From positions 63,360 to 127,359 of the IMG/VR virus record IMGVR_UViG_3300013288_000004: DNA of 64,000 bases. One strand, 5' to 3'. Positions 7,338 to 58,475 of the stretch are shown piece by piece (positions within the stretch are counted from its first letter, which is position 1; each line of letters opens with the position of its first letter). The DNA is from a virus. Its lineage: Duplodnaviria; Heunggongvirae; Uroviricota; Caudoviricetes. The translations under genes and the position numbers were made by a program. Under the pieces are notes generated by a model, which was given only the letters and a program-made list of their open reading frames with translations, searched no databases and was not told the DNA's origin.

Positions 7338-7360
7338 TCTCCGACCACGCGCCCATTTTA
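7338..7360 (-). repeat. G-rich 23-bp dispersed element (copy 1 of 17)
   Basis: Consensus TAAAATGGGTGCGTGGTCGGGGA; other copies at 7487, 8746, 9762, 13587, 14842, 16299, 17275, 19499, 20375, 21021, 25214, 27695, 49101, 52702, 57978, 58453. Confidence 0.9.
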
Positions 7361-7486
7361 ATATAATTCAATTCAGAAGTAAAGAAGAACCCTGAAGGTC
7401 ATTCAGGGTTCGTTCATTTCAGTAATCGTAATCGTATCAAATTGTTTTGGTACGCTTCATTCAGTGTTCGTTCATGATATGTAATA

Positions 7487-7509
7487 TAAAATGGGTGCGT
7501 GGTCGGGGA
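7487..7509 (+). repeat. G-rich 23-bp dispersed element
   Basis: TAAAATGGGTGCGTGGTCGGGGA. Confidence 0.9.
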
Positions 7510-7537
7510 TGATGGTAGTTGCCCCTTTCGGGGCGCA

Positions 7538-7798
7538 TCACGGTTGCCAGTCGTATAGGTCTCCCCCATCGTCCAGCCACTCAGTTAGACTCTGCACTAG
7601 TTCCTCGTAATATTCGGAATCATCATCGTCCAGTAGATCGAACGGACCATAACGTTCCTTGATGCGCTTTGCGGCTATCTTTCGATTGCTCATGTTAATA
7701 TCCCATTCACTAATCTTTTCACCATCATTCAGCCAATCGGTCAGATCTTGCACCAGCGTCTCAAAGGACTCTGCCTGATCCTTTAAGAGTTCAGCCAT
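7538..7798 (-). CDS. Acidic hypothetical protein with an internal duplication (LTDWLNDG / LTEWLDDG)
   Basis: ORF track; followed by hairpin GCCCC-TTTC-GGGGC. Confidence 0.7.
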   Translation of the reverse strand: MAELLKDQAESFETLVQDLTDWLNDGEKISEWDINMSNRKIAAKRIKERYGPFDLLDDDDSEYYEELVQSLTEWLDDGGDLYDWQP

Positions 7799-7926
7799 TC
7801 CTCATAGCTCTTCACCTTCCACCCCAACGCTTCCGCATTGGCGCGATAGATTTCATATTCCGAATCATTGTCGCCACGAGTCTGCGTTGCATAATCTTCG
7901 CGATACTGAAGTGCGATCATGGTCAT
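7783..7926 (-). CDS. Small hypothetical protein (MTMIALQYRE...KSYEEWLNS)
   Basis: 47-aa ORF read manually with a GGAG RBS and its own promoter. Confidence 0.7.
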   Translation of the reverse strand: MTMIALQYREDYATQTRGDNDSEYEIYRANAEALGWKVKSYEEWLNS

Positions 7927-7946
7927 TCTCCGTTGGTATGGATTGT

Positions 7947-7979
7947 ATTATACGCCATGAACCTGAACGGTTGCTGAAT
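7947..7979 (-). promoter_or_regulatory. Phage-specific promoter ATTCAGCAACCGTTCAG-N10-TATAAT (representative copy)
   Basis: Same architecture at 8613, 8844, 13083, 17670, 17973, 18342, 22662, 22966, 26724, 27199 and 56575 (minus) and at 13236, 21164 and 27854 (plus). Confidence 0.75.
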
Positions 7980-8179
7980 TACTCTAGCACGCCATCATCA
8001 CCAAAAAAATCAGTATCGGGCCACTTGGATTTATCAGTGATGAAATCAGTGCTGGACTCATCGATGAAACTGTCACCAGTCTCGCCGTCGCGAACCAATT
8101 CAGAGCTTTCCATTGAACGGGGGTCAAAGTCTGACCAGACAACGATGGTAGTTTTCCACAAACCCCTTGGGTTAGACAT
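7979..8179 (-). CDS. Hypothetical protein
   Basis: ORF track; acidic. Confidence 0.55.
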   Translation of the reverse strand: MSNPRGLWKTTIVVWSDFDPRSMESSELVRDGETGDSFIDESSTDFITDKSKWPDTDFFGDDGVLE

Positions 8180-8189
8180 ATACTATCCT

Positions 8190-8576
8190 TTATTGATTGT
8201 TGAAACGCGGTTCGATAGCCAGAATCATATCACGGTTCTTGACCATCCAATTGCAAAACTTGGTCAATACTTCGATTTCATCCTTGCCGCTGATCTTGCG
8301 GAACTTGATATGACGACAATAAAAACCATTCTCCATGTACGCCTTCCCACGATGATCAGTCTGGATCAGACCTTTCAAATAGATGCTGCAATTTTCCAGA
8401 ATACCATATGGCGCATCTTTTTTGGATGGCACATTCGCGATCATGATACGGGGAAGCTCCCCGAGGATGTTCACGATGCTGATATCGATCAGGAAATTGG
8501 GGAACTCATTGCGCAGAATGTTGGTAACGCCTTCGCATGTGAGAGTCACGTCCAGACTGTTAGCGATCATGGTCAT
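8190..8576 (-). CDS. Hypothetical protein
   Basis: Own promoter and RBS. Confidence 0.7.
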   Translation of the reverse strand: MTMIANSLDVTLTCEGVTNILRNEFPNFLIDISIVNILGELPRIMIANVPSKKDAPYGILENCSIYLKGLIQTDHRGKAYMENGFYCRHIKFRKISGKDEIEVLTKFCNWMVKNRDMILAIEPRFNNQ

Positions 8577-8745
8577 TCTCCGTTGGTATGGGTTGTATTA
8601 TACGCCATGAACCTGAACGGTTGCTGAATACAACTCATAGACCATTTCGATCATCTCACAAAATGTTTGCCCATAGCGCTGTCAAGCATTTATTTGTAAC
8701 AGAATCAATGACTTATCGTTCAGGTTCTGTTCAGGTATGGTATAG

Positions 8746-8768
8746 TAAAATGGGTGCGTGGTCGGGGA
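8746..8768 (+). repeat. G-rich 23-bp dispersed element
   Basis: Exact consensus; followed by hairpin GAAAGAGCCC-TGAA-GGGCTCTTTC. Confidence 0.9.
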
Positions 8769-56497: not shown

Positions 56498-56593
56498 GTA
56501 AACTTACTCCGTTGTTTGATGGGATAACTATATTGGCCAATGCCAATTCATACGTAGTATGATACCACACTAAGCTGAACGCTAACTGAACAA

Positions 56594-56884
56594 TCAAATA
56601 GGTGAATTCTTTAAGGCCATCGCATAATAATGGGCATCGGCATTAGCCACCGCATCATCATATACAGTAAACTCATTACCAGTTATTGATACAGGCTGTA
56701 ACCTATCATTAAATCCATTATAAGAAAAATAGTAGTAAGTAGGACCATAATAAGTTGATCGACTTTTTATGGAATACCCTCTCTTCCTAAGCCTTAGAAC
56801 GGTTTCATTACCAGTATAATATCTACCGATAGCGAAACCGATAATTAAGCCTATTGCTATACCACCAGAGATTTCCAATATCAT
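56594..56884 (-). CDS. Membrane-anchored hypothetical protein
   Basis: N-terminal TM. Confidence 0.65.
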   Translation of the reverse strand: MILEISGGIAIGLIIGFAIGRYYTGNETVLRLRKRGYSIKSRSTYYGPTYYYFSYNGFNDRLQPVSITGNEFTVYDDAVANADAHYYAMALKNSPI

Positions 56885-57094
56885 TAATAACTCTCGCCAA
56901 TGTGATTAAACACAAAATATAGATTGGTCGCATTCTGAATTCGCATGATGTTCATTATATTATCCCGTTGATTGATGTATCAATTATATTAGATGGTACC
57001 TGAACATGAACTGAACAAAAAAGTTCAAAAATTTTTTGCAAAGTTGCTAAATACGTATGTATAAAACGTATTTAGCAACTTTGCTTTTTCCTAT

Positions 57095-57367
57095 TTAACA
57101 CTCAATAGTAACAGATTCATAGCCCATACAGATACCGGGATCAACCATGATCTCAAAATCAGTTACACCATCTTCATCATCAACTTTCAGTACCATATAC
57201 CCCATCGTACCACAATAGATCATCTCTTCATCCTTGGCACACTGAATCATAGTGCGTTCAATATCATTAAGAATATCCAATTCAGTCATCCTACCAGCAG
57301 TAGGATTATGCTCGCGAAGGAAACGAATGGTAGCAAACATGCTGTTACGGTTATACTTGATCTTCAT
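57095..57367 (-). CDS. Hypothetical protein
   Basis: RBS. Confidence 0.7.
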   Translation of the reverse strand: MKIKYNRNSMFATIRFLREHNPTAGRMTELDILNDIERTMIQCAKDEEMIYCGTMGYMVLKVDDEDGVTDFEIMVDPGICMGYESVTIEC

Positions 57368-57405
57368 GGTAGGTTCCTCAGTGAGTGTGTAATGATACTA
57401 CCGCA

Positions 57406-57765
57406 TCAAAGTTCGACTGTCAACACTTTCTTTGTAGTTACCTTGACTGGATGTAATGCACATACACTGATATCATTAATAGAACTATTCTCGGCCAGAT
57501 TGCTTAGAAAGTCTTCCAGCGCATCATAGTGTTTGACTGCCATGATAGGATCATGTGGACCAATCCACCATTGAACAAGGTACATATGTTGCTTACTAGG
57601 CTTCAAACGATCATTACTAATCTTAATGGTCTCCCTGAGACCTTCTACGGTCCTTTCATGTCTATCCACAATCTCCTGATGATCAGCCCAGAAGACTACG
57701 TTACCCCTTTCATGCTCATTGAAGCACTCTTCATTCGGATCATATCGGTATCGTTTAATAGTCAT
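57406..57765 (-). CDS. Hypothetical protein, paralog family with 59484 and 59887
   Basis: Shared MTI(K/Q)RY N-terminus and I(S/R)(V/A)xA(L/M) C-terminus. Confidence 0.7.
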   Translation of the reverse strand: MTIKRYRYDPNEECFNEHERGNVVFWADHQEIVDRHERTVEGLRETIKISNDRLKPSKQHMYLVQWWIGPHDPIMAVKHYDALEDFLSNLAENSSINDISVCALHPVKVTTKKVLTVEL

Positions 57766-57977
57766 GTTTATAACTCCAAGTCCATTCAGTGACCATAACT
57801 ATACATGCTCTAAGGCTAACATGCAACAACTTTGTGCTCTGTGGACCATCATATGATCGTGCGCACGTTCCTACCACAAAAAAGTCTATGTTTACTACCC
57901 CCAAAGTGAATACATTAGGAAATGCTAATGTACAAAACCCTTATAAATCAAGCACTTATCAATTTCGAGCCACGGTT

Positions 57978-58000
57978 CCCCCGACCACGCACCCATTTTA
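57978..58000 (-). repeat. G-rich 23-bp dispersed element
   Basis: CCCCCGACCACGCACCCATTTTA. Confidence 0.9.
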
Positions 58001-58151
58001 ACACACCGTACCTGAACAAATCATGAACAAAACAGCCAAAAAACCACTTTTTACCACTTTTGAAACAAAAAAGTCTTTGCTGGATACCCTCAGACCCTAA
58101 TGATTAGATCAAATTTACAATGAAATTCCCACTTTTTACCACTTTTTAAGT

Positions 58152-58364
58152 TTATATGTTGTCTGTTTCCTTATCCATTTCTTCACAAACTGTCAAAGCT
58201 TCCTTAAAAATACCCTGATCCATACCCCCATAGGTGATACCACGGATGATCGCTTCGCGTATAGCACCCTCTACATCCTCTAGGAAACCATTTTTAAGGG
58301 CTGTTTCAATCCTCCAATGGTCCATAATTTCCCTTTTCACACTATCCACAAGATCATTCAACAT
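58152..58364 (-). CDS. Hypothetical protein
   Basis: GGAG RBS. Confidence 0.6.
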   Translation of the reverse strand: MLNDLVDSVKREIMDHWRIETALKNGFLEDVEGAIREAIIRGITYGGMDQGIFKEALTVCEEMDKETDNI

Positions 58365-58452
58365 AAAAATCTCCTTCGTTTGCTCATTGTATCACGCGAA
58401 GCGTGAATTGTGCAATCACAATATCACGCTTTGATGAGAATTTAACCCTATT

Positions 58453-58475
58453 CTCCCAACCTCCACCCTATTTTA
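58453..58475 (-). repeat. G-rich dispersed element (variant)
   Basis: CTCCCAACCTCCACCCTATTTTA. Confidence 0.7.

Follow-up and report, generated by a model that had tools for sequence, protein, structure and literature searches.

Judged from its sequence, the 23-bp G-rich element that recurs in this phage DNA is the core of a class of promoters, comprising the -10 hexamer, the discriminator, a predicted start and the first 8–11 transcribed bases. The layout is a TAAAAT hexamer, a GGG discriminator, a G at the start, GGTCGG at +3 to +8 and then three purines. Its probable role is that of a portable start box, related to the PeSL/PmSL cassettes of T4-type phages, for promoters that the host sigma70-type RNA polymerase reads. 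The original prediction had placed it between one unit's terminator and the next unit's promoter and could assign it to no known feature type; the copies are instead promoter cores themselves. Its description of TAAAAT as a -10-like box fits, with -35 or TTCAG boxes upstream in strict register. The 23-bp repeat is also real, except that the invariant unit is 20 bp (-12 to +8) and the last three bases are merely purine.

All 17 predicted copies were found in the window (the whole stretch of 64,000 nt analyzed here), 11 as close matches (≤3 mismatches to the 23-mer; 0 expected from 100 shuffles) and six as diverged variants with 4–9 mismatches (Table 1). The diverged copies retain the frame TAAAAT-N8-GGTYGG-purines, with one extra base at 49101, and differ in the middle; in fam2 YTGGA replaces TGCGT, and the fam3 sequence is ATGGTGGC. 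Seven copies are on the plus strand and ten on the minus strand, interleaved. A motif scan of the whole 306,759-bp genome, which had been proposed as a check, showed that close copies occur only at 70.7–121.4 kb, in a GC-rich early-gene island (genome 70–122 kb of 307 kb), and that there are none in the AT-rich remainder of the genome or the tRNA arrays, as had been claimed for the AT-rich flanks and the tRNA arrays of the window. Every copy lies between gene units and adjoins promoter or terminator motifs; the ORFs that overlap copies have no family matches while the genes on the opposite strand do, and the description of the element as always intergenic stands. The suggestion that it organizes or protects the first-injected DNA is not supported: the genome ends in direct terminal repeats and has the island 70–122 kb from the end. 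A Chi-like recombination or protection site was rejected given the confinement to one island and the lack of co-orientation; TGGTGG or TGGAGG is present in some variants and absent from the main form. Also set aside were a G-quadruplex (four GG tracts in variants, just three in the main form) and a MITE or Correia-like element (in convergent pairs the needed promoter halves lie outside the pair, and no target duplication is seen). Read as its reverse complement, the element looks like the 3' end of a tRNA, but ARAGORN finds no tRNA at the copies and the phage tRNA-Pro genes do not match the block. In relatives, T-arm-like hairpins adjoin two copies; they are part of a separate gene, tRNA-like or tmRNA-like, whose end precedes the block.

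Table 1. Copies of the element and associated terminator hairpins, in window coordinates (mismatches are to the 23-mer).
Position	Strand	Feature	Mismatches	Class	Surroundings
7338–7360	-	G-block core, fam1 (2 mismatches)	≤3	A	-35 TTTACT at 17 bp; hairpin 7387–7411 just upstream; tandem with TTCAG promoter (~7284–7299), ahead of gene 6951–7241
7487–7509	+	G-block core, fam1 exact	≤3	B	TTCAG-type boxes 7460–7475; hairpin at ~+22; antisense to gene 7538–7798
8746–8768	+	G-block core, fam1 exact	≤3	B	boxes 8719–8734; faces bidirectional terminator 8786–8809; predicted RNA 57 nt
9762–9784	-	variant core, fam3	4–9	A	-35 TTGACG 9802–9807; then second sigma70-like promoter and RadC-like gene
13587–13609	-	G-block core, fam1	≤3	A	TTTACA, TGn; terminator hairpin 13636–13660 upstream
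14842–14864	-	G-block core, fam1	≤3	A	hairpin 14891–14915 upstream; gene 14106–14795 downstream
16299–16321	+	G-block core, fam1 variant (A at +1)	≤3	B	boxes 16272–16287; terminator ~30 nt downstream; predicted RNA 60 nt
17275–17297	-	G-block core, fam1 variant	≤3	A-like	TGTACA-17; upstream of TTCAG promoter and gene 16702–17178
19499–19521	+	G-block core, fam1 exact	≤3	B	boxes 19472–19487; homology with relative G002 ends exactly at 3' edge, then G000-specific 2.2 kb
20375–20397	+	variant core, fam3	4–9	C upstream half	faces terminator 20445–20469
21021–21043	-	G-block core, fam1 (1 mismatch)	≤3	A	ATGACA-17, TGn; then TGTTG-N8-CAACA palindrome, second promoter, gene 20474–20902
25214–25236	+	variant core, fam2	4–9	B	boxes 25187–25202; terminator 25248–25265; orthologue in G002
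27695–27717	-	G-block core, fam1 exact	≤3	A	TTGACG-17; palindromes, second promoter and gene 27215–27625 downstream
49101–49125	-	diverged core with one extra base	4–9	B	45-nt leader to gene 48546–49064; orthologous promoters in G001 and G002
52702–52724	+	variant core, fam2	4–9		faces terminator behind TnpB-like gene 52818–53933
57978–58000	-	G-block core, fam1 (1 mismatch)	≤3	B	no clear downstream gene
58453–58475	-	variant core, fam3-like	4–9	B	~90-nt leader to gene 58152–58364
7387–7411	.	bidirectional terminator hairpin ahead of class A -35			recurs at 13636–13660 and 14891–14915
8786–8809	.	bidirectional terminator			separates antisense copy 8746 from converging promoter and gene

About 80 distinct copies (81 counted) occur in related metagenomic phage contigs, and elsewhere matches are not above chance; the exact 20-mer is found once each in three unrelated bacterial MAGs, a chance-level result that we rejected as a clue to the host. 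No named relatives were found at the DNA level in the phage collection, and the DNA polymerase is just 43% identical to those of XacN1-like phages. Three types of upstream half precede the core: class A has a sigma70-type -35 at exactly 17 bp, class B has TTCAG-N6-TTCAG, and class C is a rarer third type. Among the 81 distinct copies, 31 have a -35-like hexamer at exactly 17 bp and 37 have the TTCAG repeat 11 nt upstream; the -10 hexamer is TAAAAT in 78 and CAAAAT in three, which fits the sigma70-type TAnnnT, and TGn (extended -10) is present in 42. The attributes of sigma70-type promoters (a -35 16–18 bp upstream, an extended -10, or activator boxes) are thus found here, and an independent consensus scan scores the minus-strand copies as promoters (TGn in 4/5). 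In the window, the repeat lies 11 nt upstream of the eight class B copies, of which the original prediction had listed four, at about 10–12 nt.

The same boxes bear on a resemblance to T7 class II/III promoters, which are 23 bp long, present in 17 copies, read by the phage polymerase and without -35 or activator boxes. Here too a near-identical, intergenic 23-bp sequence occurs 17 times and ends in a GG-purine, GGGAGA-like run, at which a T7-kind single-subunit phage RNA polymerase would start. That it is such a promoter is extremely unlikely: -35 and TTCAG boxes stand in strict register with TAAAAT, the -4 to -1 region is GC-rich, and the complete genome, unlike T7, appears to be without a phage polymerase, with no match to RNA_pol (PF00940) in a search for which control genomes were uninformative.

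About half of the copies are ordinary promoters upstream of genes. The genes behind these sense copies are mostly ORFans and have no Pfam matches, and the copies are followed by 40–120-nt leaders, a second promoter or a terminator. The antisense copies are oriented towards bidirectional terminators. All seven plus-strand copies have a GC hairpin 13–33 nt downstream of the predicted start, in line with the earlier statement that plus copies often face bidirectional hairpins. A hairpin at +22 to +33 follows 20 of the 37 class B copies, giving a promoter and a terminator hairpin within ~70 nt, the layout of a small RNA gene. Short G-rich RNAs had been foreseen, and the sequence does predict G-led species of 42–63 nt in which the G-rich 5' end is unpaired (8.6 of the first 11 nt) and an A-rich linker leads to a terminal hairpin; AGTGG..GGCAC, part of the predicted RNA body, is also common among the copies. 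These predicted RNAs and their common body would suit a reading in which transcripts from all these promoters share a 5' tag or seed (G-N-GGUYGG-purines) recognized by an RNA-binding protein, a ribonuclease or a complementary RNA, with the antisense copies as a small RNA gene family. We consider this rather unlikely, as it leaves the invariant hexamer and GGG unexplained, no copy matches an Rfam family, and the genome contains no complementary partner of the G-rich start except the antisense strand of the copies. Moreover, the terminator hairpins beyond class B copies also end converging genes, which would need the A-rich linker and hairpin anyway. Very unlikely, in turn, is the earlier proposal that short G-rich transcripts form R-loops priming replication, like promoter-dependent T4 origins. 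The first 11 RNA nucleotides are indeed rich in G and purines, and the class B context is like that of a middle promoter with an A-rich stretch behind it, but 17–20 copies lie clustered on both strands of one 50-kb island, and half of them are ordinary gene promoters.

The conservation of the box is tied to its hexamer. Of 132 TTCAG-type promoters in the phage clade, the G block or a near-variant is present in 41/41 that have TAAAAT and in 0/91 that have other -10 hexamers (Fisher p ~4e-33), with a G content after the -10 of 0.64 and 0.14, respectively; sigma70-type TAAAAT promoters have the block in 15/15. The +1 base is G in 80/81 copies and +9 to +11 are all purine in 70/81, while +6 is C or T in every copy, a regularity imposed by the pattern used to collect them. 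Identity of the 20-mer at orthologous sites is 97.5%, against 78–84% in the flanks and 54% in the purine tail, with sharp borders at -12 and +8. The middle five bases form discrete alleles (TGCGT or YTGGA) without graded variation. Sigma70 can do without A at the third position of the hexamer, and many different hexamers occur among the other TTCAG-type promoters of the clade; polymerase contacts alone are therefore insufficient to account for the invariance of TAAAAT and GGTCGG.

It is conceivable, if less probable than not, that the 20 bp, besides being a promoter core, are bound in a sequence-specific way by a factor from the phage or the host (repressor or co-factor), acting on -12 to +8 or on the single-stranded G-rich non-template strand, with a regulon of 17–20 promoters per genome. 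Such a site would agree with invariance extending to untranscribed bases dispensable for sigma70, with the perfect linkage of hexamer and block and with the sharp borders. It would also agree with the discrete alleles of the block and with the convergent early/middle promoter pairs of relatives, in 4/4 of which a fam1 copy faces a non-fam1 copy. However, no candidate protein is apparent, either among the genes behind sense copies or in a domain search, which found no OmpR-type or MotA-type domain that could serve as activator at the TTCAG boxes. In addition, the sequence is asymmetric, operator-like palindromes lie elsewhere in the same promoters, and "any purine" at +9 to +11 is unusual for a protein site.

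Under the favored explanation, a portable start box, the host sigma70-type RNA polymerase would read TAAAAT as the -10 hexamer, the GGG discriminator would lead to a long-lived open complex, and transcription would start at the G seven bases past the hexamer, so that GGTCGG and the three purines become RNA bases +3 to +11. The 20-bp box would be a module joined to at least three upstream halves, including the class A half, with its -35 at 17 bp and often behind a terminator hairpin, and the class B half, whose direct repeat would bind a putative activator. The expected outputs are leaders that cross a second promoter before entering small early genes, 42–63-nt antisense RNAs ending at the converging gene's bidirectional terminator and, in relatives, the convergent early-versus-middle pairs. 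The rigid sequence may reflect stacked initiation constraints: a very tight promoter (extended -10, GGG) would require a fixed G start to clear, clearance would also require a G/purine-rich and very stable first RNA-DNA hybrid, and the pyrimidine-G step at +6/+7 could be among these constraints. Escape from tight promoters is controlled by ITS sequence, hybrid stability and YG steps near +6 (PMC5961368; bioRxiv 10.1101/2019.12.21.886044; PMC12464699). The YG step predicts pausing whereas the stable hybrid predicts fast escape, which are opposing effects, and the discrete middle alleles fit a specific reader or short-patch conversion better.

The start box may also act as a crossover point for module shuffling, because it would be the longest identical stretch common to dozens of cassettes. 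Copies had been suggested to delimit exchangeable gene modules, and the breakpoint comparison with relatives that had been proposed upholds this in part: homology stops exactly at the 3' edge of the block at 19499 and 8746 (two mosaic junctions), and at one orthologous locus fam1 is swapped for fam2 in place with both flanks conserved. At least four orthologous copies keep both flanks, which is unlike a dedicated recombination site. We regard as improbable the stronger version, in which the block is primarily a site-specific recombination site or hotspot and its promoter activity secondary. The junctions, the swap, the pairing of one box with three different upstream halves and numerous downstream parts, and the precedent of PeSLs (PMC2839356, PMC4122927) would all be accommodated, but no recombinase is linked to the copies and the constant spacing to the -35 and TTCAG boxes shows selection on promoter function. 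Contigs from the source samples (Logan contigs, four DNA runs, positions 7000–26999) contain no deletion, inversion or other rearrangement between copies, at a resolution that leaves rare variants invisible; a wastewater run gave few joints, with sides of <30 letters resting on the repeat itself. As in PeSLs, recombination at module borders seems to follow from shared identity and does not look like the work of a dedicated site.

Tentatively, a putative factor (a protein bound to the DNA or to its non-template strand, or else a molecule that partners the G-rich 5' end of the RNA) might read the start box and thereby control a regulon of ~20 sense and antisense RNAs per genome, including convergent pairs in which host-type early (fam1) promoters face activator-type middle (fam2) promoters as a hard-wired temporal antisense switch for jumbo phage early genes. 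If the box is factor-read, it would represent a new early/middle control layer, including programmed antisense transcription, in an uncultured jumbo phage clade; if polymerase-intrinsic, it would be a naturally optimized start module, useful for promoter-escape studies and promoter design. It offers a clean natural case in which bases after the -10, up to +8, are conserved beyond any classical promoter element and in one-to-one association with a particular hexamer.

Among known systems, the lambda PR core is similar in having a -10 followed by GG..GC and then the start, with agreement by eye at 12 of the first 15 bases, and GG beside the -10 stabilizes open complexes via sigma region 1.2; PR, however, is a single promoter with another start region and another role. 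T5 early promoters (N25 etc.) are likewise phage promoters for the host polymerase, very strong and escape-limited, in which the first transcribed bases are part of the function (PMC12464699, PMC5961368). Their start regions are A/purine-rich and merely similar, whereas dozens of the promoters described here have one and the same G-rich 14-mer, linked to a single hexamer variant. The PeSLs and PmSLs of T4-type phages are likewise many compact units of terminator hairpin and sigma70-type early promoter, with a parallel set on activator-dependent promoters, situated among small ORFan genes where the genome of a large myovirus is plastic; indels or replacements in those phages have their junctions at the cassettes (Arbiol et al. 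2010, PMC2839356; Comeau et al. 2014, PMC4122927). The hairpins of Table 1 that abut the -35 of class A copies, as also in relatives, reproduce the arrangement of a stem-loop terminator immediately followed by an early promoter. As for junctions, two clear ones lie at the 3' edge of the block, and four or more orthologous copies have both flanks intact. In PeSLs, conservation covers the hairpin, the -35, the -10 and the Shine-Dalgarno/start codon (PMC2839356; PMC4122927), whereas the most rigid part here is the -10 and the 14 bases after it, common across promoter classes, and long leaders, second promoters or terminators take the place of a Shine-Dalgarno and start codon at the cassette 3' end, with many copies antisense. 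The start box would also extend the PeSL idea of regulatory-cassette shuffling beyond classical T4-like phages.

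The window covers positions 63,360-127,359 of one virus record, 306,759 bp long, that carries direct terminal repeats. Judging from its genes for a tail sheath, a head-tail adaptor, a family-B DNA polymerase and a ribonucleotide reductase, the phage is a jumbo myovirus, and in bioreactor sludge it attains a depth of 40-200x; its DNA polymerase is only 43% identical to those of XacN1-like Xanthomonas/Stenotrophomonas phages, and no DNA-level relatives were found among named phages. G+C content is 35.8% in the genome versus 40-46% in the stretch from 70 to 122 kb (window 7-59 kb). 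This island, about 10 points above the rest of the genome, has promoter types of its own. It holds dense small genes, mainly on the minus strand, together with tRNA arrays, GOLLD RNA and genes for an anti-restriction protein of the ArdC-like kind that has a metallopeptidase domain, a RadC-like protein, a TnpB-like protein and a T4 Rnl1-like RNA ligase (see table). The complete 315-kb relative G002 has a syntenic island in the corresponding part of its genome, 65-93% identical to the window and with many gaps.

A repeated 23-bp G-rich box occurs at 11 places in the window with at most three mismatches (none in 100 shuffles), and a scan of the whole genome confined the close copies to 70.7-121.4 kb. 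All 17 copies of the original prediction exist at the coordinates claimed for them: the six beyond these 11 differ at 4-9 positions and preserve the frame of TAAAAT, eight bases, GGT(C/T)GG and purines. The intergenic placement of the copies was also borne out: all ORFs that they overlap are short or antisense and gave no family hits, in contrast to the genes on the opposite strand.

When the copies were oriented and aligned, every one had a promoter half immediately upstream, which makes TAAAAT a -10 hexamer; the G-rich part would then span -6 to +11. The box is thus a promoter core in fixed register. In class A promoters, such as that at 13587, a -35-like hexamer (TTGACR or TTTACW) lies exactly 17 bp ahead of TAAAAT, and TGn is frequent; several copies have a terminator hairpin whose end falls within the -35, and these promoters and hairpins were also called by an independent consensus scan. 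Class B promoters, such as that at 8746, carry a direct repeat, TTCAG-N6-TTCAG, whose end is 11 nt upstream of TAAAAT, and the rarer class C has a different conserved upstream piece. The class A spacer is often a near-perfect AT-rich palindrome (CATGTAATTAATTACATG type) that looks like a dimeric-repressor operator. Between several class A copies and the next promoter downstream there is another repeated motif, TGTTG-N8-CAACA or GTGGTAAAAATACAACA.

In the island only, the TTCAG repeat is also found ahead of some 45 ordinary genes, where a TATAAT-like hexamer follows it at a distance of 10-11 nt. At about 45 promoters (window 7284-58502) this repeat, with its 11-bp period, stands in for the -35; most have a TATAAT-like hexamer followed by a common A/C-rich leader (CATACCAAC...GGAG). 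For these repeats, no activator gene of the OmpR or MotA type was found in the phage. The host polymerase is the likely reader of the promoters, because no single-subunit polymerase gene and only one weak sigma region-2-like ORF were found in the genome. The former result also speaks against a T7-type promoter, a reading of the box that was examined and dropped, as were Chi, a G-quadruplex and a MITE.

The 18-20-mer recurs many times in two IMG/VR contigs, G002 and the 130-kb fragment G001, and in several metagenome contigs; elsewhere it is not above chance. After removal of duplicates, 81 distinct copies remained (31 class A, 37 class B). Among 132 distinct TTCAG-type promoters of the clade, chosen regardless of the block and using 19 different -10 hexamers, the G block follows TAAAAT in 40 of 41 cases (a near-variant in the other) versus none of 91 with other hexamers (Fisher p ~4e-33). 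G content in the 14 bases after the -10 of these promoters is 0.64 with TAAAAT versus 0.14 with other hexamers. The block is likewise present in 15/15 sigma70-type promoters with TAAAAT. The conserved stretch has a sharp onset at -12 and extends to +8, beyond which only purine identity is kept (all three following positions in 70/81 copies); the predicted +1 is G in 80/81. Comparison of eight orthologous pairs gives 97.5% identity for the 20-mer, 78-84% for the flanks and 54% for the purine tail. The middle five bases take discrete forms, TGCGT (fam1) in the majority of copies or YTGGA (fam2) and relatives.

High-throughput work has shown that the first ~10 transcribed bases strongly determine escape, that escape is faster with stable hybrids and good stacking, and that initiation pauses arise from pyrimidine-G steps, especially near +6 (PMC5961368; bioRxiv 10.1101/2019.12.21.886044; PMC12464699). 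The box has a C/T-G step at +6/+7. It may represent an over-tight promoter design, in which an extended -10 and a GGG adjoining the hexamer would be combined with a start fixed at G and a G/purine-rich first hybrid of great stability. Polymerase contacts do not explain the invariance of the third hexamer base and of GGTCGG, and for this reason a specific reader of the box, either a DNA-bound protein or something that pairs up with the 5' end of the RNA as its partner, is a serious rival to the promoter design.

The sense-oriented copies, which are those of class A plus three of class B, are 40-120 nt upstream of a gene, and a second promoter often intervenes. Eight of the ten genes scanned around copies had no Pfam or PHROG match; PHROG hits were obtained for 14106-14795 and the RadC-like gene. 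All seven plus-strand copies oppose gene flow and, as had been noted for many of them, face a bidirectional hairpin, here GC-rich and 13-33 nt past the predicted start; across the clade, 20 of 37 copies in class B share this arrangement. Folding predicts RNAs of 42-63 nt in which a G-rich 5' end stays free and is followed by an A-rich linker and a terminal hairpin, the latter two doubling as the converging gene's terminator. Four loci in relatives have two copies in face-to-face orientation, ~60 nt apart; at all four, one box is fam1 and belongs to a sigma70-type promoter, and the opposing box is not fam1 and belongs to a promoter of class B or C. Near copy 8746, a minus-strand TTCAG-type promoter (boxes 8844-8859) has a terminator (8786-8809) within ~40 nt and would yield a tiny RNA overlapping the predicted 8746 RNA in antisense. 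In relatives, a G-block copy converges with a tRNA-like or tmRNA-like gene whose T-arm is perfect, and in one relative (L018) this T-arm is joined directly to the block. A tRNA-derived site was examined as a reading of the box and dropped.

Features of the island and of related sequences (window coordinates unless stated)
Feature	Location	Strand	Remarks
RadC-like gene	9200-9778	-	
tRNA-like/tmRNA-like gene	13236-13430		
tRNA-like/tmRNA-like gene	L017 8095-8232	-	relative; also L065, L018
AT-rich spacer palindromes	13610-13630, 14865-14885, 17298-17318		relatives L075, L011, L077
ArdC-like gene	18358-19248	-	
TGTTG-N8-CAACA / GTGGTAAAAATACAACA motif	~20975-20995, 27650-27680, 52660-52680		relatives L012, L050, L085
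tRNA (Rfam)	26011-26108	-	absent from ARAGORN list; 98 nt, may contain insert; kept in G002
tRNAs (Rfam)	32333-32405, 32417-32492	+	absent from ARAGORN list
GOLLD RNA	34363-34810	+	full-length match, 198 bits, E 2e-54
T4 Rnl1-like RNA ligase gene	44622-45734	-	
TnpB-like gene	52818-53933	-	Cas12f1-like TNB

Other roles had been suggested for the element. A role in organizing first-injected DNA is not supported, the island being far from the terminal repeats, and R-loop origins gained no positive evidence. Exchange at module borders gained some support. Homology between the window and G002 continues through promoter 19499 and ends right after the box, giving way to a 2.2-kb segment specific to the record holding the window, and in comparison with another contig the break recurs at copy 8746. 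Both flanks are preserved at other orthologous copies. Between copy 8746 and its counterpart in G001 both flanks are conserved and the sole difference is a fam1-to-fam2 swap. Recombination at the box is more plausibly a by-product of shared identity than its purpose, and the pattern agrees with the PeSL/PmSL model, in which shuffling occurs at regulatory cassettes that are shared (PMC2839356, PMC4122927).
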